From a bacterium (GTDB lineage: Bacteria > Patescibacteriota > Minisyncoccia > Moranbacterales > UBA2206): 64,000 nucleotides of DNA. The notes beneath the pieces are model-generated. The model made no database searches and was not told the DNA's origin. It worked only from the letters and a program-made list of their open reading frames with translations. Every line of letters starts with the position of its first letter. Position 1 is the first letter of the stretch. Made by a program: the position numbers and the translations under genes. Below, piece after piece: positions 2,039 through 57,031 of this stretch. The stretch covers positions 3,124 to 67,123 of the forward strand of contig JAJYGF010000004.1 of the NCBI GenBank assembly GCA_021785125.1, read 5' to 3'.

Positions 2039-2281
2039 CTATTTTTTGAAGTGTTCTTTTAATTTTCTTCTTCCGGCGCCGCTTTTCCAATATAATTCAC
2101 GCCTCTTTGCTTCAATTTCAGTTTCAAAATCTTCTTTAAAAAGTAATCTAAATGGCTTCCTGTGTTTTGTAGATTTAACTCTGCCTTGATTATGTTCTTG
2201 AAATCTCCTCTCAAAATCATTCGAATACCCAACGTAAGTTCTTAAATCTTTTAAACTTTGTAAAATATAAGTTGAATACAT
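2039..2281 (-). CDS. GIY-YIG nuclease family protein (UPF0213/YhbQ-like, catalytic domain only)
   Basis: YILQS...YVGYSNDFERRFQEHNQG matches GIY-YIG motif; 80 aa. Confidence 0.8.
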   Translation of the reverse strand: MYSTYILQSLKDLRTYVGYSNDFERRFQEHNQGRVKSTKHRKPFRLLFKEDFETEIEAKRRELYWKSGAGRRKLKEHFKK

Positions 2282-2476: not shown

Positions 2477-2530
2477 CTTCGCTATAGCTTCGGCGGGCAA
2501 GCCCGCTTAAACCTAGCATATTCATTTGTG

Positions 2531-2843
2531 TGCCTGGAGTCAGAATTGAACTGACGACACGAGGATTTTCCTCTATATTTGTCTTGGGTTTCCCACAAGG
2601 ATCGGACTATTTCTTCACCGCTCGGTAACCGAGTACGGTGTTAGGCGCTCACGCAAGATTATTGTTGGGACTCACTCGCTAGTCTCTACACCTTCTTCAG
2701 GATCAAGGCCCGCTGAAGCTTGGCTCGAGATTGCCATATCTGTGAAGATTTAGGCTTCCTCGAATTCACCTAATTTTTAAGACTGCATTACTGCAGAATG
2801 GACCGAAAACCAGTCCTCTGCTCTACCACTGAGCTATCCAGGC
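2531..2843 (-). tRNA. tRNA-Phe (anticodon GAA) interrupted by an intron in the anticodon loop; 5' exon 2812-2843, 3' exon 2531-2570
   Basis: Joined exons GCCTGGATAGCTCAGTGGTAGAGCAGAGGACT|GAAAATCCTCGTGTCGTCAGTTCAATTCTGACTCCAGGCA is near-identical to E. coli tRNA-Phe; exons separated by 241 nt. Confidence 0.75.
2571..2811 (-). ncRNA. group I self-splicing intron (ORF-less, ~241 nt) in tRNA-Phe anticodon loop
   Basis: 5' splice site after U33 with exon GGACU pairing to intron GGUCC (U.G wobble, P1); P2 hairpin CUGCA-GUAA-UGCAG (GNRA loop); R-like GUAGAGACUAGC and S-like AAAUAGUCCG elements forming P7 (GACUA/UAGUC); intron ends in G before exon GAAAAUCCUC. Boundaries +/-2 nt. Confidence 0.7.
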
Positions 2844-7492: not shown

Positions 7493-8182
7493 ATGTATGG
7501 GCACAATTTACAACTTGGAGGAAAACAAGCTATGCCAAGAACGAGAAAAAGCGGATGCCTGCCAGATAAGTTGACCCTAATCTCATTGGAGATATCAATA
7601 ATCGGTCTCCAGATTTCTTTACGAGAAACTCTTGGAAAAGAAAAGGCCTATAACTTATTTCTCGACAGGACTGAGGAAGGAAGAGATGTTTTTTCAGTAG
7701 TAATACCCAGCATGTTTTTTAAAAAGGTCTGGGATAAAATCAAGAAATGCCCTACTGTTGAAATAAGGCATAGGCGTTCTGGAGGAATCGCTGACGGTAA
7801 AATTGGCACCATGGAAAAGGGAAGGAGATTTGCCATTTTCAAAAGCGAGAGAACATTTACGACTGACATGCAAGGACTGGTCAATATCTTATATCCGAAA
7901 ATAATGGAGGTGATGGCTGATTATCAGCCATCCGACAAGATATTGATAAAAAATCTCCTGCTACTGAAGGCAGTGCGTGAGAAGCTCTATTGGCTTGGAT
8001 TAGAAAACTTTTTTTCGCTTGACATAGAAAATATATGTTTCACGCCAAATAAGGATTTTTATTTTTTTATTCTAAATAAATCGGCGAAAACATATATTTT
8101 TTTCAAGCTAAAAAACAGATATTCATCAACAGAGCTAAAAAAACAACTCAGGAGAAAGCTAAAAAAACCAAAGGGCGCCTAG
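7493..8182 (+). CDS. hypothetical protein
   Basis: 229-aa ORF with upstream promoter and downstream intrinsic terminator. Confidence 0.55.
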   Translation: MYGHNLQLGGKQAMPRTRKSGCLPDKLTLISLEISIIGLQISLRETLGKEKAYNLFLDRTEEGRDVFSVVIPSMFFKKVWDKIKKCPTVEIRHRRSGGIADGKIGTMEKGRRFAIFKSERTFTTDMQGLVNILYPKIMEVMADYQPSDKILIKNLLLLKAVREKLYWLGLENFFSLDIENICFTPNKDFYFFILNKSAKTYIFFKLKNRYSSTELKKQLRRKLKKPKGA

Positions 8183-28798: not shown

Positions 28799-28849
28799 GA
28801 TTTGTCCAGCCCTTGATTTTATCCTAAAATAAGCTTATAATAATTTATC

Positions 28850-50159: not shown

Positions 50160-50283
50160 ATCCCGCACTAACTTTGGATAGCAATAAAATTTATACCACA
50201 TCGAAAGGGCGGGAATCTATAAAAAATAAATAGCCTTGGTTTTTATTGGAGAAATTTAATAAAATCCAAAGTTAGTGCGGGAT
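50160..50283 (+). promoter_or_regulatory. perfect 20-bp inverted repeat pair (ATCCCGCACTAACTTTGGAT / ATCCAAAGTTAGTGCGGGAT) forming a ~124-nt hairpin whose right arm contains the start codon of 50282-51193
   Basis: Left arm 50160-50179, right arm 50264-50283; ATG at 50282-50284. Confidence 0.7.
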
Positions 50284-51193
50284 GAAAATAAAAAAATCGA
50301 CACATCTTTTGATTTTGACGATGCTGGCTTTCGGAAGCTTCGCTTTTTACGTGACCGCACAGGAACAAGGATCAGATCCATTGACCTCGACTCCCACAAC
50401 CGGTGATTCTTCGCTTTTGACCAACGCCGATGCGATTGGCGCCGCTGCCGGAACGACCCCAGCGGCAACTCCTGCCGATCCGAACAATCTGACCCAACAA
50501 GTGTCCCAACAAATTTCCACCGCCATGAACGCGGCCAGCCAGAGCAACCAAGATATCAGTCTGGACCAGATAAAAAGCATCGTCAGCCAATCGCTGAACG
50601 CGACCGTAAAAGATTCCGACTTACCGCAGATTCCCGCAAGCGACATCAAAGTCAAGACGGAAAACTACGGCAATCTGCCGGCCGACAAGGCCGCCGAAAA
50701 GAAAAAGGAAGATGTGGCTGATTATCTGGTCAGCATGGCCTATATCCTATCCAGCAACTCTCCGACTCCGATCACTTCTTCGGATGATACGACAAGCTTG
50801 GAGAATAGCATAACCGGACAATTATCCACCGCCCTAACTACCCAGAATCCGGCCGCTCTCAAAGATTTGAGCGACAGTGGTGCGAAAGTTTTGGGCCAGA
50901 TGAAAAACGTGGAGGTGCCGCAAGATTTGGTCGACATCCACAAAAAAGGCTTGCAACTGGCGGAATATGCCATGCAGCTGCAGAACAAGATCAGTCCGAA
51001 TAGCGCGGATCCGCTGTCCGACATCGCCAACTATGCCAAAATGGAAGCTTTGATCGGAGTCACCGCCAATTATGCCAGCGATGCGGCCGGCAAATTGGAC
51101 CAATACGGCCTGACGATCGGAGACGTGCAGAATAAATTGAACACCTACGGCATCAATATTCCGTCCGACTTGTCGCAAAAACTGTCGCAATAA
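50282..51193 (+). CDS. hypothetical secreted protein (signal peptide, A/S/T/Q-rich)
   Basis: MKIKKSTHLLILTMLAFGSFAFYVTAQEQG signal-like N-terminus. Confidence 0.5.
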   Translation: MKIKKSTHLLILTMLAFGSFAFYVTAQEQGSDPLTSTPTTGDSSLLTNADAIGAAAGTTPAATPADPNNLTQQVSQQISTAMNAASQSNQDISLDQIKSIVSQSLNATVKDSDLPQIPASDIKVKTENYGNLPADKAAEKKKEDVADYLVSMAYILSSNSPTPITSSDDTTSLENSITGQLSTALTTQNPAALKDLSDSGAKVLGQMKNVEVPQDLVDIHKKGLQLAEYAMQLQNKISPNSADPLSDIANYAKMEALIGVTANYASDAAGKLDQYGLTIGDVQNKLNTYGINIPSDLSQKLSQ

Positions 51194-51215
51194 AATTTTA
51201 AACTCAAGAAGGAAT

Positions 51216-51262
51216 CCTAAAACTCAGTTTTATGGATTTCCTAAAACTGAGTTTTAGGAAAA
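51216..51262. terminator. two adjacent near-identical hairpins (TCCTAAAACTSAGTTTTAGGA) in opposite orientation
   Basis: aatcctaaaactcagttttatgga + tttcctaaaactgagttttaggaa between two secreted-protein genes. Confidence 0.4.
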
Positions 51263-51263
51263 A

Positions 51264-52364
51264 ATGTTAAAAAACAAGAGATTCGCAATCAAAAAACTTT
51301 TTTTCGTCTGCTTTTTGGCAGTTACGCTCATATTCGCTCCCGTCCAAACGCATCAAGCCGACGCCCTGTGGGGAGAAGTGCTGAACGCCAGCCTGACAAC
51401 CATCCTGAACTACATCCAAAACATGATCCAAGGCATGATGATGGGCATGATGAAACAGATGGCCACCCAGATGCTTAACCAGGACATGGGCAATATGATC
51501 GGCGGTTCTTCAACTTCAAACGCCAAATTCATCACCAACTGGCAGGATTTCATGTTCACGCAGCCCAAGCAAGAAGCAGACAAATACATGAACGATTACT
51601 TGAGCCAATTGACCAAAGGCCGCGGCTCGATCACCGGCTACATTCCCAACAACAATCTTGGATCTTCCAAATTGCTTTCCGACAACTACGAAGGCGTGGG
51701 CGACGGCTCGTTCAATTACGGCATGGCGCAGAACGATCCGGAATACGCCAGCTTGATCGCGACCGCAGAGGCCAAGGGCATTAATTTAGGCGGGGTGAAC
51801 ACCGGCAACGCGGGAAACTATATGCAACAACTGGTGCAAGGAGCAAAAAGTTTGATATCGGATTCAACGATGCCGACACCGACCTATCAAGGCAACCCGG
51901 CCCAAAATTTATTTTCCGACGGAACTTTCAAAAATCTGAACACCTACCTTTCTGGTATCAACAACCCTTGGGCTTTCAACATGAACGCCGAACAAAAATA
52001 TCAAGAACAATTGACGCAAAATCAGCAGGCCGCCCAGGCCCAAGCAGTCGCATACCAGGGTTTCAAGGGTACGTCTTCGGGCGGCACCATCACCAATCCC
52101 GGCTCGCTCATCAAAGAAAACATGGCCAACGTCCAGGACATGGGCAACAAAGTCTTGGCCAGCGCCAACAGCATGCCGGAAATCATCACTTCCGTCATCC
52201 AGCAGATCGTCACCCAATCCATCCAGAGCGGCATCGGCAATGCCGCGGCCAACGCCCAACGGGAAGTCCAGAACGTCCAAAATCAAACCGCCCAGCAAGT
52301 CCAGCAGCAAGTCCAACAGAACGGACCGGGAGCGATGTTCGGAAACGGCTCGACAGGACAATAA
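51264..52364 (+). CDS. hypothetical secreted Q/N/M-rich protein
   Basis: Signal-like N-terminus; low-complexity Q/N/G-rich body. Confidence 0.5.
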   Translation: MLKNKRFAIKKLFFVCFLAVTLIFAPVQTHQADALWGEVLNASLTTILNYIQNMIQGMMMGMMKQMATQMLNQDMGNMIGGSSTSNAKFITNWQDFMFTQPKQEADKYMNDYLSQLTKGRGSITGYIPNNNLGSSKLLSDNYEGVGDGSFNYGMAQNDPEYASLIATAEAKGINLGGVNTGNAGNYMQQLVQGAKSLISDSTMPTPTYQGNPAQNLFSDGTFKNLNTYLSGINNPWAFNMNAEQKYQEQLTQNQQAAQAQAVAYQGFKGTSSGGTITNPGSLIKENMANVQDMGNKVLASANSMPEIITSVIQQIVTQSIQSGIGNAAANAQREVQNVQNQTAQQVQQQVQQNGPGAMFGNGSTGQ

Positions 52365-52379
52365 CCAGCCCGACATTCA

Positions 52380-52456
52380 CAAACAGCCTGAATTTGTCGA
52401 GGCTGTTTTTTTGTATTATCTTATAGCGATAAACCTTCGGCGGATGTTGATTTTAT
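52380..52456 (+). repeat. direct repeat copy 1 (77 bp identical): intrinsic terminator + promoter -35 cassette
   Basis: aaacagcct gaatttgtcg aggctgttttttt + gtattatcttatagcgataaaccttcggcggatgTTGATTttat; followed 17 bp later by TAAAAT abutting ATG 52476/52482. Confidence 0.85.
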
Positions 52457-52475
52457 CCCTGTTTTATGCTAAAAT

Positions 52476-52793
52476 ATGAATATGAATAAATCCAAAATAA
52501 TCGCAAACAAGCTCTTCTGGTTCTTAAGAAGAAACGGGGTTGCTTTGGAACCGTCCAGGGATCGCCATCTCATTATCAACCAAACATTGGCCATGGGATC
52601 CATGGATGACATACAGAAGCTTTTTCATGAATATGACAAAGAAACCATCCGCGAAGAGTTTCGAAAGCCTGCGGCAGGCCTGTATGCGCCTGCGGTTTTG
52701 CATTTTTTTGAATACATTCTCGATGTTCAATTGAATAATAGCGAACAATATATAAAAAAAATACATGGAAAGCCTACACCTGGACATTCTTGA
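52476..52793 (+). CDS. hypothetical protein, possible antitoxin partner of downstream nucleotidyltransferase
   Basis: 105 aa; overlaps next ORF by 29 nt; apparently leaderless. Confidence 0.4.
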   Translation: MNMNKSKIIANKLFWFLRRNGVALEPSRDRHLIINQTLAMGSMDDIQKLFHEYDKETIREEFRKPAAGLYAPAVLHFFEYILDVQLNNSEQYIKKIHGKPTPGHS

Positions 52794-53418
52794 TCAAGAA
52801 CGAAAAGATTTGTTCCAAAAATTATCAGCATTTCACTCTCTTGGTTATTTATCCGGTGGAACATCGCTGGCATTGCAATTAGGACATCGCATATCCTATG
52901 ATTTTGATATTTTCTGCCCGAAGGAAATTTCAGAATCGTTTGCGGCCAAGGTTCAAAAGGAGATTCCCGTGAAGGAAGTGCTTATAAACAACAGTGATGA
53001 ATTCACATTTCTTACCGGACAAGACATCAAAATATCTTTTATTTTTTATCCCTTTGATTTGAGGGAATATCTGCTTGAATTTTCAGGAGCTCCTTTGCTC
53101 TTTGCTTCTCCCATAGGCGTGGCATTGACAAAAGCGTATGCCCTGAACAGAAGAAATGCCTGGCGGGATTATGTCGATTTATATACGATATTAAAAAAGG
53201 GCATCGTAAAACTTGAGGAAATTATACAAAAATCGCAAGAAGTTTATGGAAATTTGTTCAATGAAAAGCTTTTTCTGGCCCAGCTTGTGTATACGAAAGA
53301 CATCTCTGAAGCGGAAATCGCCGGCACGCAGATGATCAAACCGACAACGCTTCAGGAAGTCGCCGCATTTTTTGAAAAAGAAGTCACGGCTTACGTGGAA
53401 AGAAAATTGGGCCAATAA
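52765..53418 (+). CDS. nucleotidyltransferase, AbiEii/AbiGii-like (DUF1814-like) toxin family
   Basis: YLSGGTSLALQLGHRISYDFDIF resembles the GGTAL...RxSxDxD motif of AbiEii. Confidence 0.45.
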   Translation: MESLHLDILDQERKDLFQKLSAFHSLGYLSGGTSLALQLGHRISYDFDIFCPKEISESFAAKVQKEIPVKEVLINNSDEFTFLTGQDIKISFIFYPFDLREYLLEFSGAPLLFASPIGVALTKAYALNRRNAWRDYVDLYTILKKGIVKLEEIIQKSQEVYGNLFNEKLFLAQLVYTKDISEAEIAGTQMIKPTTLQEVAAFFEKEVTAYVERKLGQ

Positions 53419-53438
53419 CATTATTAAAATGATTCCGC

Positions 53439-53515
53439 CAAACAGCCTGAATTTGTCGAGGCTGTTTTTTTGTATTATCTTATAGCGATAAACCTTCGGC
53501 GGATGTTGATTTTAT
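53439..53515 (+). repeat. direct repeat copy 2 (identical 77 bp): terminator + promoter -35 cassette
   Basis: Same sequence as 52380-52456; TTGATT-17-TAAAAT then ATG 53541 six nt after -10. Confidence 0.85.
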
Positions 53516-53540
53516 GCCCGATTAGTACTAAAATAAACTC

Positions 53541-53831
53541 ATGAGCAAGCAAGAAATAAAGCAAAAAATCAACAAACAGCTTCCATTCTTGAAAGCCAGA
53601 TACCATATCAAGCGTATCGGCATTTTTGGTTCATTCGTACGCAACGAACAAAAAAAGGGGAGCGACTTGGACATTCTGGTGGAATTTGAAACACCCATCG
53701 GTTTTTTCGAGTTTATCCGACTGGAAAATGAATTGAGCCGCACCTTGCGCCACAAAGTGGACCTGGTTTCCAAAAATGCCGTTAAACCGGCGGTGAAGAA
53801 AGAAATTTTAAAAGAAATTCAATATGTCTAG
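53541..53831 (+). CDS. minimal nucleotidyltransferase (MNT/MntA-like antitoxin)
   Basis: GIFGSFVRNEQKKGSDLDILVEF = GSxxRGxxxxxSDxDxxV polymerase-beta NTase motif. Confidence 0.75.
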   Translation: MSKQEIKQKINKQLPFLKARYHIKRIGIFGSFVRNEQKKGSDLDILVEFETPIGFFEFIRLENELSRTLRHKVDLVSKNAVKPAVKKEILKEIQYV

Positions 53832-54183
53832 GCGAGGAATAAGGCTTTATCTGGAGGATATCCGCACATCCATCCGAAGGATAGAACAATACACGCGCGG
53901 AGTAAGTTTTGACGAATTTTATCGCAATCATCTGATGATTGACGCAGTTGTAAGAAATCTTACGATTATCGGCGAAGCAGTCAAAAATATTCCGACTGAA
54001 TTGAAGTCCAAAAATCCTGAAGTCGCATGGAAAGAAATCAAGGGCATGCGAAACAAAGTTATACATGAATATTTTGGAACTGACGAAGAAATTTTATGGA
54101 AGACCGTTCAGGATGACATTCCGGTTTTCAAAAAACAAATTGCCAAACTTTTGAAAGATAGCAAGCAAAAGGACTTAAAATAG
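53824..54183 (+). CDS. HEPN/DUF86 (HepT-like toxin) protein
   Basis: RNKVIHEY = Rx4-6H HEPN motif; overlaps MNT gene by 8 nt. Confidence 0.75.
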   Translation: MSRRGIRLYLEDIRTSIRRIEQYTRGVSFDEFYRNHLMIDAVVRNLTIIGEAVKNIPTELKSKNPEVAWKEIKGMRNKVIHEYFGTDEEILWKTVQDDIPVFKKQIAKLLKDSKQKDLK

Positions 54184-54256
54184 ACGCCCCAATGGCTATT
54201 TTTATTTTCCCCGGTTGATTTTTGCCTTATTTCAGGCAAAATCAGACATACCCTTG

Positions 54257-54544
54257 CCCAGCACTAACTTTCACTCCGTCGTATGCATTATGTATATATT
54301 ATAAAAAATGAAATTGATGAACTGTATTATGGATGCACAAACAACCTAAAGAAAAGATTTTTTGAGCATAATAGCGGCGAATCTTTTTCTACCAAGAATC
54401 ATGAATGGAAATTAGCCTATTATGAGGCTTATTTAAGGGAAGAAGATGCCTGGAATCGTGAAAAACAACTAAAAAGGCATGGACAAGCTTTGGCTCAACT
54501 AAAGCGCAGAATCAAAAAATCTTTAAGTGAAAGTTAGTGCTGGG
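54257..54544 (+). mobile_element. 288-bp unit: GIY-YIG gene bracketed by perfect 19-bp inverted repeats (CCCAGCACTAACTTTCACT / AGTGAAAGTTAGTGCTGGG)
   Basis: Left arm 54257-54275 ends 7 nt before ATG 54283; right arm 54526-54544 contains the stop codon; arm core GCACTAACTTT is shared with the 50160/50264 inverted-repeat pair. Confidence 0.5.
54283..54537 (+). CDS. GIY-YIG nuclease family protein (second paralog)
   Basis: VYIIKNEIDELYYGCTNNLKKRFFEHNSG GIY-YIG motif. Confidence 0.8.
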   Translation: MHYVYIIKNEIDELYYGCTNNLKKRFFEHNSGESFSTKNHEWKLAYYEAYLREEDAWNREKQLKRHGQALAQLKRRIKKSLSES

Positions 54545-54545
54545 T

Positions 54546-54574
54546 TGACTTTTTCTGCCAGATGTGCTAGTATA
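54546..54574 (+). promoter_or_regulatory. sigma70-like promoter (TTGACT-17-TAGTAT) with strong RBS (AAAGGAGGAG) before 54676
   Basis: ttgact ttttctgccagatgtgc tagtat; aaaggaggagag atg. Confidence 0.5.
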
Positions 54575-54675
54575 TACAGTTACGCTAGTAAAGTGCGGTT
54601 ATTTTAAAACCGAATATCAATCAACAATCATTTTCGCCCGGAAGGCGAAGGCTCAATTGAGCCAAAGGAGGAGAG

Positions 54676-55092
54676 ATGAAAGACTTCGTATTGGCAATAA
54701 TAGCCGCGGCTATAGTAACCACCGTTGCATTTGTCATTGTTTTTTCGACTCATCACAACACAACCCCTATCATGCCCAAATATCCTAACCTGTCTCCGGA
54801 AGGACAGCAACGGATGGCTATGATCAAATCGGCGATAGCAAAATATCTGCCCAACATGTTACCCGACATGTTACCCGACATATCAAATCAAAAAGTGTCC
54901 CCGAGCTTTAAACTAGTGGACGTTTCCGAAAAACCGAAAGATGGTTGGCACTACCATGGATACATCCAGCTGTCGGACGGGAGACGTATTTTATTCCAGG
55001 CAAATTATTGGAACATAAGCAATGGCCAGGTGCAAGTTTGGCTGTCCACGGCCACGAAGACATACGGCCTGCTTGATTACCCTAACGGGTAG
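54676..55092 (+). CDS. hypothetical membrane-anchored protein
   Basis: N-terminal TM; contains tandem MLPD repeat. Confidence 0.5.
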   Translation: MKDFVLAIIAAAIVTTVAFVIVFSTHHNTTPIMPKYPNLSPEGQQRMAMIKSAIAKYLPNMLPDMLPDISNQKVSPSFKLVDVSEKPKDGWHYHGYIQLSDGRRILFQANYWNISNGQVQVWLSTATKTYGLLDYPNG

Positions 55093-55189
55093 GAAATCTC
55101 GAGAGAGAATTGAGAGAGCTTGGCAAAACAGCCTGGCTCTCTTTTTTTTTATTTTTATGGTATAATAAAAACATCTAAAAATAGAAGTT

Positions 55190-57031
55190 TTGAATCTAAA
55201 ACAAAAATCGATCCGGAAATTTTTTTTCGCAGCAGTTATTGTTACGATGATTGCTAATTTTTTATTTGTGCCTTTGACAACAATGGCACAAAATATGGAT
55301 CCGGCACATTTTGTCGGATCAGGCGGCGATCTGGGTGTGGCCGTAAGCGAAGCCAATCCCAACCCGCCTCCGGCAACCGAATCCTGCAATTTTTTTTGGA
55401 ACCCTATCAGCTGTTCTTTATTGGCCGTATTAAAAGTAGGCGGCTGGTTGATTGACGCATCCGATCAGATTTTCCAATACAGCATCAGCCCCAGCATTTT
55501 CAGCCAGGTTGCCGGTAATGGCAATAGGGCTATCTATGATACTTGGGCAGAAGTGCGCGATTTTCTAAACGTCGCTTTCATCCTCGTGCTGCTTTTTTCC
55601 GCTTTCGCCACTATCTTTCAAGTGGAGAAGTACAGTTATAAGAAAATTCTCTTATGGCTGATAATCATGGCTTTGTTGGTGAACTTCAGCTTCCCCATAA
55701 CCAGATTCATTATTGATATTTCAAACTCATTGATGTACACACTGCTAAGCCGTTTAAGTTTTGGCGGCGATCCTTCACACATTATCACCAACATCACCCA
55801 GGACAGCAACATAAAAGATATCATCGTGCCTCAAAACGGCACGAAAGCTTCTGTCGCCCTCTTGCTCGCTTCCGTTATTTTCATTTTTATTCTCGCTATC
55901 ACTTTTTTAGCGCTGGGAATATTGCTGGTCATAAGAATGATCGCTTTGGCCATACTTATAATTTTTTCTCCGGTGGCTTTTGTCGGATCCATCATCGGAA
56001 AGGGCAAACAATGGTGGGACTATTTGTTCAAATACGCCTTTTTCGGTCCGATAATGATCTTCATGTTAAGTGTGGCCATGGCCGTTTTGAAAAACTCTAT
56101 AAAAATACAGTTCACAATGCAAGGCGTCAACAACAAAATAGACAATCCCATAAACCAACATCTCACCGGCGCTATGGCGGCATATTCAATTCCGATCGTG
56201 ATTCTTTGGATCGGCATGGGCGTCGCTCAGAAAATGGGCATCGCCGGCGCGGCGGCAGTCACTGGACAGGCGCAGAAATTCGCCAAATGGGTTCCAAATG
56301 CGATATTCAAGGCCACCGGCGTTCCGGGCGGAGTCAAAAAAGCCGCAGATTATTATGGCAAGAAGGGCGCTCCGCTCGGCCTTAACCGAATTCCTGGATT
56401 GCGAGGATCTGAGAAGACAGAGGCTACTGAAGCTTGGTGGGCTTCGAAGCTAGGAGTTAAGGGCGCAAAAGATCAGGACATGAAAAAGAGAGCGGAAGAA
56501 TACAAGAAAGAAAATGCGGATACTGGAATGCTTAAGGACAGATGCTCCAAAGGAGATGCAGCCGCTTGTTATCGATTGGCTGATGATGGATTTTTGGATT
56601 CTAAGGAATATAACGATTTCTCAGCAAAAAATAAAGACGCTGGCCTGCAAAAAACCCTTAATTCTAAAGTTAAGAAAAATAGAGTGGACCTATTGATAAA
56701 TTACAGAATGAACAGCAAAAAAGAATTGGATGAAGTCAAAAAGAACAATAAAAACATAAATACGGATGAGGAAGCACGAGAATTCATCGCCAAGGATGAG
56801 ATTGGCAAATTAAATCCTGAGAAGTGGGGAGAGCAATATTGGAAAGACATAATGAAGGACCCATCACCTGAAATCAAAAAGGCCGTCGAGGAAAGCTATA
56901 GCGCTTTGGCAGAATCCGCTCAAGAAGATATCAAGAAACGCCTCAATCCGAACAATGCTGCCGCCCTGAGAGAGGTTATGACTGGCCAAAAAACCAGCGG
57001 AACAAAAAGACCCGTAGGATTCAACCGTTAA
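55190..57031 (+). CDS. polytopic membrane protein, VirB6/TrbL(PrgH/TcpH)-like candidate T4SS channel component
   Basis: Signal-like N-terminus, ~6 TM segments in the middle, long charged C-terminal tail; position upstream of VirB3/VirB4-like genes. Confidence 0.4.
   Translation: MNLKQKSIRKFFFAAVIVTMIANFLFVPLTTMAQNMDPAHFVGSGGDLGVAVSEANPNPPPATESCNFFWNPISCSLLAVLKVGGWLIDASDQIFQYSISPSIFSQVAGNGNRAIYDTWAEVRDFLNVAFILVLLFSAFATIFQVEKYSYKKILLWLIIMALLVNFSFPITRFIIDISNSLMYTLLSRLSFGGDPSHIITNITQDSNIKDIIVPQNGTKASVALLLASVIFIFILAITFLALGILLVIRMIALAILIIFSPVAFVGSIIGKGKQWWDYLFKYAFFGPIMIFMLSVAMAVLKNSIKIQFTMQGVNNKIDNPINQHLTGAMAAYSIPIVILWIGMGVAQKMGIAGAAAVTGQAQKFAKWVPNAIFKATGVPGGVKKAADYYGKKGAPLGLNRIPGLRGSEKTEATEAWWASKLGVKGAKDQDMKKRAEEYKKENADTGMLKDRCSKGDAAACYRLADDGFLDSKEYNDFSAKNKDAGLQKTLNSKVKKNRVDLLINYRMNSKKELDEVKKNNKNINTDEEAREFIAKDEIGKLNPEKWGEQYWKDIMKDPSPEIKKAVEESYSALAESAQEDIKKRLNPNNAAALREVMTGQKTSGTKRPVGFNR

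Follow-up and report, generated by a model that had tools for sequence, protein, structure and literature searches.

A repeated control region precedes two predicted toxin-antitoxin operons in a low-GC island of a patescibacterial genome

Genes and control regions at the locus

The DNA analysed here, referred to as the window, is a 64,000-nt stretch of contig JAJYGF010000004.1 (assembly GCA_021785125.1) from a bacterium of the Patescibacteria. Its central feature is a pair of tandem two-gene operons of predicted toxin-antitoxin (TA) type, each preceded by one copy of a direct repeat which is called R (copies R1 and R2). Operon 1 encodes a DUF6922 protein and an AbiEii/DUF1814-family nucleotidyltransferase (NTase), and operon 2 encodes an MntA-type NTase and a HepT protein of the HEPN/DUF86 family. 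Both operons lie in a low-GC island between members of an operon resembling a type IV secretion system (T4SS). The features are collected in Table 1, and the loci used for comparison are given L numbers.

Table 1 Features of the island and its borders in the window
Feature	Position	Strand	Remarks
p366 gene	51264-52364		left border of the island
Low-GC island	52365-55189	+	2.8 kb (2825 nt); contains both TA operons, the GIY-YIG open reading frame and p138
R1	52380-52476	+	exact 77-mer 52380-52456; similarity up to 52476
R1 hairpin	52381-52408	+	T-run 52406-52412; predicted terminator of the upstream gene p366
R1 promoter (predicted)	-35 TTGATT 52447-52452; -10 TAAAAT 52470-52475	+	TG at -15/-14
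DUF6922 gene, putative antitoxin/partner	52482-52793	+	103 aa; ATG 6 nt after -10 (predicted leaderless); 105 aa if from ATG 52476
AbiEii/DUF1814-family NTase gene, putative toxin	52765-53418	+	217 aa; overlaps the DUF6922 gene by 29 nt
R2	53439-53535	+	exact 77-mer 53439-53515
R2 hairpin	53440-53467	+	T-run 53465-53471; predicted terminator of the AbiEii operon
R2 promoter (predicted)	-35 TTGATT 53506-53511; -10 TAAAAT 53529-53534	+	
mntA, minimal NTase, predicted antitoxin	53541-53831	+	96 aa; ATG 6 nt after -10 (predicted leaderless)
hepT (HEPN/DUF86), predicted RNase toxin	53824-54183	+	119 aa; overlaps mntA by 8 nt
GIY-YIG open reading frame	54283-54537		inverted repeats 54257-54275 and 54526-54544
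p138 gene	54676-55092		
TrbL_3/VirB6-like gene	55190-57031		right border of the island

The upstream open reading frame (ORF) of operon 1 scored 26.7 bits against the Pfam family DUF6922 (PF21956; cut-off 27) and had no match in NCBIfam or PADLOC. Its AlphaFold2 (AF2) model is all-helical, with six helices and a predicted local distance difference test (pLDDT) score of 77, and no fold match at E<=0.001 was found for it in the PDB. Sixteen homologues with 55-66% identity were collected, and a profile search found 141 cluster representatives among 1.84 billion proteins. In all loci inspected (L053/L054, L055/L056, L057-L059, L014, L027 and L031, with unrelated genomic contexts), the DUF6922 gene is located directly 5' of a gene for a 204-217-aa AbiEii protein and usually overlaps it. 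The pairing of DUF6922 with a short AbiEii is seen in seven homologue loci, which represent six distinct genomic contexts, in addition to the present window. Given this consistent adjacency, the pair behaves as a two-gene TA module, in which DUF6922 would be the putative antitoxin of the AbiEii-like toxin.

The second protein of operon 1 matched Pfam AbiEii (PF08843) with 45.5 bits, above the cut-off of 22.5, and the AbiEii models of PADLOC weakly (23-26 bits). Its AF2 model (pLDDT 96) was compared with solved structures by Foldseek, and the best neighbours were JHP933, a DUF1814 protein of H. pylori (4ok0/4o8s, E 3e-7), and MenT1 of M. tuberculosis (8an5/8an4, E 3e-5), all with probability 1.00. 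The residues G31 G32 T33, D46, D48, K123, R130, D135 and D138 are invariant among 36 homologues, and also among seven homologues derived from the inspected loci. The sequence-only reading of this DNA had described a 105-aa ORF overlapping an AbiEii-like NTase. The NTase and the overlap were borne out, and the upstream ORF turned out to be a DUF6922 protein which is likelier 103 aa long, as the gene callers also picked 52482 as its start. An AbiEi antitoxin was not recognised in this ORF by Pfam, NCBIfam or PADLOC, or by the structure search, which returned no solved relative; DUF6922 is the only family that it matches.

For operon 2, the description as an MNT nucleotidyltransferase overlapping a HEPN/DUF86 protein was borne out. 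MntA matched Pfam NTP_transf_2 (PF01909) with 59.8 bits, and also Polbeta, and its closest PDB entry was 1WOT (E 5.5e-10); HepT matched HepT-like (PF01934) with 106 bits. The motifs as read from the translations are intact, with GSX10DXD present in MntA as G30 S31 X10 D42 L D44 and RX4HXY present in HepT as R76-NKVI-H81-E-Y83. The equivalog models of NCBIfam for MntA (NF047752) and HepT (NF047751) gave 52.2 and 45 bits, under their cut-off of 60. Judged by Pfam profiles and motifs, the pair is thus a member of the family and is not an equivalog by the NCBI threshold.

Anatomy of the repeat

The 77-mer CAAACAGCCTGAATTTGTCGAGGCTGTTTTTTTGTATTATCTTATAGCGATAAACCTTCGGCGGATGTTGATTTTAT is present exactly twice in the window, in direct orientation on the plus strand, and no match was found in 100 shuffled sequences even when up to 3 mismatches were tolerated. 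The two copies, whose starts are 1059 nt apart, are similar without gaps over 97 nt (94% identity), close to the earlier estimate of an identical 77-bp repeat with similarity over about 100 bp. On its left side R has a sharp edge, at which a hairpin also begins. Beyond the right end of the 77-mer, the copies have the in-register block CTAAAATA alone in common, and the 12 spacer bases in between match at 6/12. Local alignment of the outer flanks found no significant similarity, and extension of R to the left into the stop codons (GGACAATAAC versus GGCCAATAAC) or to the right into the 5' ends of the coding regions was not significant either (shuffling P 0.09 and 0.04, respectively).

The hairpin AAACAGCCT / AGGCTGTTT has a 9-bp stem and a 10-nt loop, is followed by T7, and has a folding energy of -12.4 kcal/mol when folded alone. 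It was missed by the terminator scanner because the loop limit of the scanner was 8 nt. The promoter scanner called TTGATT-17-TAAAAT in both copies (52447-52475 and 53506-53534). A predicted terminator followed by a predicted promoter of the sigma-70 type is present at both sites, as in the sequence-only reading. That reading had placed the ATG 0-6 nt after the -10 box. The distance is exactly 6 nt in both copies, and ATG 52476, which abuts the -10 box of R1, is probably not a real start. A scan of the window with Rfam at gathering thresholds found no RNA family in R or the TA region.

Both copies of R are spanned by contigs of several independent assemblies (L001/L006, L002 and L004), and short contigs from other assemblies end inside R, as expected of a true repeat. 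R is therefore not an assembly artefact.

Another terminator of the island, located 3' of p138 (55107-55165), consists of GAGAGAGC...GCTCTC and T9 and has a loop containing CAAAACAGCCTG, which is similar to the initial 11 nt of R, CAAACAGCCTG. This likeness may be due to chance or to residual homology. On the 3' side of this terminator, the TrbL_3 gene has an extended -10 promoter, TGGTATAAT.

Distribution of the repeat and origin of its promoter

No further copy of R was found in about 82 kb of genome sequence, which comprises the window and about 18 kb of adjoining sequence from the same species. Two 22-mers of R were used for exact-match scans of public collections: the promoter-side one, TAAACCTTCGGCGGATGTTGAT, had no match in the species representatives of GTDB or in IMG/VR, and the hairpin one, CAGCCTGAATTTGTCGAGGCTG, had none in IMG/VR or the JGI metagenomes. 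R is also absent upstream of the DUF6922-AbiEii and MntA-HepT homologues in other loci, where the modules have their own promoters, and when all collected loci and two extensions of this genome were searched with R by short-word BLAST, only 11-16-mers attributable to chance were returned. The sequence TTGATTTTATCC at 28812 and at 7732 (minus strand) was considered as a possible copy of R and rejected as promoter consensus or chance; the former site belongs to a real terminator-promoter intergenic region, and the latter is inside an ORF and has no -10 box.

It had been proposed from the sequence that R is a portable insulator and expression unit which recruits defence modules. In the form of a terminator-promoter cassette or recombination site, comparable to integron attC and capturing TA or defence modules at a hot spot, this proposal has several observations in its favour. 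The copies of R bracket exactly one module (R1, 982 bp, R2), as expected of single-crossover integration of a circle bearing R. Compared with the diverged strain L004, the window differs at 97 positions of 51155-51881 and at no position of 51882-53526, and the mismatches resume 11 nt after the 77-mer of R2; a recombination tract therefore ends at R2, where this 1.6-kb block of perfect strain identity stops, and R is able to serve as a homology arm. Furthermore, the slot which the island occupies holds different modules in the loci L013 and L014, split by a repeated 40-85-nt intergenic element with a promoter, and the motif CCTTTATnTTAGnCAAAA recurs in L013, L014 and L053/L054. However, the scans above leave R with two copies, without matches to its 22-mers and without association with any homologous module examined; R has a single internal hairpin and no terminal inverted repeats, no integrase, transposase or recombinase was found among the called genes in or around the island, and an entire paralogous module was duplicated in tandem in L013, which accounts for the repeats there. 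We therefore consider it quite unlikely that R is a portable cassette. The available sequences describe it as a two-copy local duplicate and give no support to a dispersed mobile element.

The likely source of the duplicate was examined by comparison of promoters. The type found in copy 1, TTGATT-N17 (spacer end TTTTrTGy)-TAnAAT-N6-ATG, is common to the DUF6922-AbiEii homologues in L053, L055 and L057, which are three close homologues in unrelated genomic contexts. MntA relatives with 78% identity, known from two contexts, share a promoter of another type, TTGCCG-atttttcttttatttg[ct]-TAT[AC]CT, which is preceded by terminator hairpins specific to each context. By this comparison, the promoter half of R belongs natively to the AbiE-type module, and mntA has lost its usual promoter.

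The same facts could be read as remnants of an older tandem array of R plus AbiE-type module, in which the second coding part was replaced by mntA-hepT and 77 nt were kept by conversion or selection. Copy 2 does keep the -35 box, the 17-nt spacing and the -10 box (yTAAAAT) of the AbiE-type promoter although the relatives of mntA use another one, the slot in L013 does hold a tandemly duplicated module whose copies have diverged, and the similarity to the right of the 77-mer decays with no abrupt stop. On the other hand, no trace of AbiE-type coding sequence is present near mntA and the flank alignments were not significant, the 6/12 spacer similarity is within chance, and more events are needed than for duplication of the promoter region. 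An older tandem unit is thus an unlikely origin, and duplication of the promoter region from R1 to R2 is preferred. The strain comparison with L004, with its recombination tract ending at R2, also counts in favour of this local event.

Leaderless expression

Among the 45 window genes that start with ATG, 10 have a TAnnnT hexamer ending exactly 6 nt before the start codon, where about 0.66 would be expected per offset, and none has one at an offset of 4, 7 or 8 nt. Against the background of all ATGs in the window, the spike at 6 nt has a binomial P of 1.5e-9. Convincing Shine-Dalgarno sequences were found for only about three of the window genes, and none is present upstream of the ATGs 52482 and 53541. 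The geometry of a -10 box followed after 6-7 nt by ATG is kept in the DUF6922-AbiEii homologues L053, L055, L057, L027, L031 and L014, and also at the MntA homologue L060. Since the -10 hexamer ends 6 nt before the ATG, the usual transcription start position would fall on the A of the ATG.

Leaderless transcription of both operons, as predicted by these positional statistics, is well supported indirectly. The window-wide distribution indicates that the design is a habit of the organism and is not special to the TA modules. No direct prior work on leaderless expression or 5'-end mapping in the Candidate Phyla Radiation (CPR)/Patescibacteria was found in a literature search.

The -10-like hexamers at the starts could also be explained as mere AT-rich sequence, the operons having ordinary leaders from elsewhere or true starts further downstream. 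The promoter scan, which found 14 sites in the region against 13.6 expected from shuffled sequence, and the weak -35 box would fit such an explanation. It is nevertheless very improbable, because AT-richness does not account for a spike confined to one offset, for the exact geometry kept in seven homologous modules of different genomes, for the missing Shine-Dalgarno sequences, or for N-termini that fit the homologue alignment.

Two other observations concern the sequences in front of window genes. Long low-complexity spacers composed of A and T only, such as aaatttaaaatttgaaattt, precede many genes, especially T4SS-like ones (before 38772, 44947, 47648, 58096, 58524, 58961 and 59770), and some of them close with TAAAAT or TAAATT at a distance of 6 nt from the ATG. 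In contrast to most window genes, p138 is preceded by a strong Shine-Dalgarno sequence, AAAGGAGGAGAG.

The island and its insertion slot

The two TA operons and the GIY-YIG ORF have a GC content of 36-40%, compared with 45-52% for p303/p366 and 42-47% for the TrbL_3 gene. In related loci, all of them from Patescibacteria, the conserved gene order is Mg-chelatase-like, G5, RsmA-like, UbiA(-), p303, p366, TrbL_3, p337, PrgI, TraC-like, VirB4 and p219, with protein identities of 40-85%, and in six syntenic relatives (L015, L016, L020, L024, L025 and L029) the gap between p366 and TrbL_3 is 0-30 nt. By this synteny, the island was inserted at a site that is a recurrent hot spot, and it splits a T4SS-like operon; such a position accounts for the terminators and promoters found in all of its intergenic regions. 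The small island of the sequence-only reading is thereby retained, and its flanks, which had been taken for secreted-protein genes, are conserved members of the operon that it splits.

The slot is occupied in three other loci, and in two of them the occupants are other NTase TA pairs: L013 has two tandem paralogous NTase+HEPN pairs, L014 has ORF6N together with DUF6922-AbiEii, and L018 has an unrelated gene. In more distant loci, AbiEii-type or NTase-HEPN modules are located 1.5-4 kb upstream of the TrbL_3 gene. A far-reaching interpretation would be that the p366/VirB6-like slot is a dedicated capture site working without an integrase, which swaps NTase TA or defence modules by means of R-like cassettes in an integron-like and leaderless-adapted manner, with DUF6922 as a new antitoxin class for DUF1814 toxins. 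As a whole, this combination is speculative and decidedly unlikely.

A motif, CCTTTATnTTAG(C/T)CAAAA(n)CC(G/A)C, was observed just 5' of -35 boxes after successive modules at the same hot spot in another patescibacterial metagenome-assembled genome (MAG), and also upstream of the DUF6922-AbiEii module in an unrelated contig; its positions are 8031-8046 and 8864-8879 in L013, 1082-1097 in L014 (with a diverged one at 2078-2115), 1719-1734 in L053 and 2439-2454 in L054. The idea that the motif CCTTTATnTTAGnCAAAA is a general intergenic element of Patescibacteria was dropped, as the L013/L014/L053 loci alone contained it and the window offered no convincing instance.

A contig of MAG GCA_027428275.1 shares 99.99% identity with the window, whose part 1-33351 extends about 33 kb past the end of the near-identical NCBI contig DAICBU010000015.1. 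The contig L010 from a strain with 99.4% identity diverges from 54605 on and has a different ORF of 159 aa (L010 1552-2031) instead of p138; strains therefore differ in the right-hand portion of the island. The GIY-YIG ORF is 84 aa long and is flanked by a perfect 19-nt inverted repeat, CCCAGCACTAACTTTCACT / AGTGAAAGTTAGTGCTGGG (54257-54544). A second inverted repeat of 32 nt with 84% complementarity is found just upstream of p303 (50160-50283) and shares the core GCACTAACTTT; it may be a gene-less relative of the GIY-YIG element. Between p337 and PrgI there is a 23S_rRNA_IVP gene (PF05635, 58096-58461), which is also there in L034, is not at that position in L013 or L015, and is elsewhere in L020. 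It resembles a further small mobile insertion into this T4SS-like operon. Outside the operon, the anticodon loop of tRNA-Phe(GAA) (2530-2843, minus strand) is split by a 241-nt group I intron at 2582-2821 (Rfam RF00028, 66.8 bits; aragorn with introns allowed), and a small GIY-YIG ORF (2039-2281, minus strand) is located about 250 nt from this tRNA, past tRNA-Gly.

Proposed origin and function

The likely explanation of the locus, in our judgment, is that a local duplication put one promoter region before two independent TA operons in an acquired island of the T4SS-like operon. In the proposed sequence of events, a horizontally acquired low-GC island would have split the operon into p303-p366 and TrbL_3-p337-PrgI-TraC-VirB4. 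Duplication or gene conversion would then have placed a copy of the p366 terminator, together with the first half (5') of the AbiE-type promoter, before mntA, where it replaced the promoter that mntA originally had. In each of the two resulting control units, the terminator would stop read-through from the upstream gene, and about 40 nt past it the TTGATT-N17-TAAAAT promoter would start transcription at the A of the ATG and give a leaderless mRNA. For the downstream gene of either pair, translation would be coupled to that of the first gene by the overlap of 29 nt or 8 nt, respectively.

The toxin of operon 1 probably modifies tRNA 3' ends, by analogy with the MenT toxins, and DUF6922 would probably neutralise it by binding or by inducing its auto-phosphorylation. 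By its intact motifs, operon 2 is a Class I MntA/HepT system of type VII, in which MntA is expected to AMPylate the tyrosine of the RX4HXY motif of HepT. The organism seems to use the leaderless design widely and Shine-Dalgarno sequences rarely. With such a habit, we infer that a correctly spaced promoter doubles as a translation-start signal, and the upstream terminator may serve to prevent read-through transcripts in which an internal AUG would lack a Shine-Dalgarno sequence.

Several points weigh against this explanation. The promoter, the terminator and the leaderless starts are read from the sequence, and the -35 box TTGATT, which matches 4/6 consensus positions, is weak. The genome sequence searched for R amounts to the approximately 82 kb given above, and diverged copies would escape exact-match scans with two 22-mers. 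For the direction of copying from R1 to R2, the evidence comes from three close AbiE-type and two MntA-type homologue contexts, and the terminator half of R adjoins the stop codon of p366 and is found with neither module elsewhere. For the identity of operon 1, the Pfam score of the DUF6922 protein is 0.3 bits under the cut-off, its antitoxin activity is putative, and the AbiEii-like clade gave no match to solved MenT or AbiEii proteins in sequence searches of the PDB, either with the single sequence or with a profile.

As a local duplicate, R would be a case of ordinary genome tinkering, of modest interest in itself, in a small acquired island with two recognisable TA modules. The most novel item is DUF6922 as the partner of a short DUF1814 toxin, since no papers on DUF6922 were found in a literature search and it has no structural relative; it is a candidate for a fourth or fifth antitoxin family of the DUF1814 toxins. 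The ways in which these toxins are neutralised are being actively studied. A heavy reliance of this organism on leaderless expression is also clearly indicated by the sequence of the window, and it would explain the need of an inserted gene to come with, or to copy, a promoter at the precise spacing. The recurrent slot for NTase TA modules in a conserved T4SS-like operon of the CPR bears on how tiny genomes accommodate defence genes. The DUF6922 partner, the leaderless signature and the TA hot spot in the T4SS-like operon are all worth following up.

Comparison with known systems

Unlike miniature inverted-repeat transposable elements (MITEs), repetitive extragenic palindromic (REP) sequences and repeats of the integron attC kind, R has only two copies in the approximately 82 kb searched, lacks terminal inverted repeats and has no recombinase nearby. 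With regard to expression, TA genes are reportedly enriched among the leaderless transcripts of Mycobacterium tuberculosis. Both window operons share with the leaderless TA operons of that species a -10 box about 6-7 nt before the start, the lack of a Shine-Dalgarno sequence and a downstream gene coupled by overlap; they differ in that the host belongs to the Patescibacteria and that leaderless transcription is here deduced from sequence statistics. Leaderless TA operons of M. tuberculosis were described earlier (Cortes et al. 2013 Cell Rep, as cited by PMC12641261).

The signatures of Class I HepT/MntA systems of type VII are GSX10DXD and RX4HXY, as reported for SO_3166/SO_3165 of Shewanella oneidensis (PMC7641770, Yao et al. 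2020). Operon 2 has both of them, the same gene order (mntA, then hepT) with overlapping genes, and the same families PF01909 and PF01934. It differs from this class by its scores below the NCBIfam equivalog cut-offs (52 and 45 versus 60 bits), by its predicted leaderless mRNA, and by a promoter region which appears to be borrowed from the neighbouring module and is not of the type of its closest relatives. AMPylation of the HepT tyrosine and growth inhibition by the RNase HepT are predicted for it from the motifs.

Operon 1 resembles the abortive-infection and type IV TA system AbiE, which consists of AbiEi and AbiEii in Streptococcus agalactiae and Lactococcus, in having a PF08843 toxin above the cut-off as the second gene of a two-gene operon. 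However, its toxin is shorter (217 aa) and matches the AbiEii models of PADLOC weakly, at 23-26 bits, and its upstream gene encodes an all-helical protein of about 100 aa and not AbiEi (COG5340), which has a winged-helix N-terminal domain. Without AbiEi, the pair therefore lacks one defining feature of AbiE.

The other system to be compared is MenAT1 of M. tuberculosis (Rv0078A/Rv0078B), whose toxin belongs to the DUF1814/AbiEii family (PMC10435456, PMC11375011, PMC7450476). The modelled toxin of operon 1 has the DUF1814 NTase fold according to its Foldseek matches to MenT1 and JHP933, and the metal-site pattern GG[ST]...DxD and the catalytic Lys/Arg/Asp pattern K...R...D..D of the family are invariant in its 36 homologues, although it has no similarity to the solved MenT/AbiEii proteins at the sequence level. 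It has been reported that characterised small antitoxins induce auto-phosphorylation of DUF1814 toxins at a conserved Ser/Thr (PMC11375011). The family is reported to keep a Ser/Thr at the auto-phosphorylation site, and the invariant T33 in the active-site loop of the operon 1 toxin is a candidate for it. As in MenAT1, the short toxin is preceded by a small, unrelated helical partner, which in the window is DUF6922 and not MenA1, MenA3/AbiEi (COG5340) or COG4861. By analogy, the DUF6922-AbiEii pair resembles the MenAT systems, in which unrelated small antitoxins control DUF1814 toxins.

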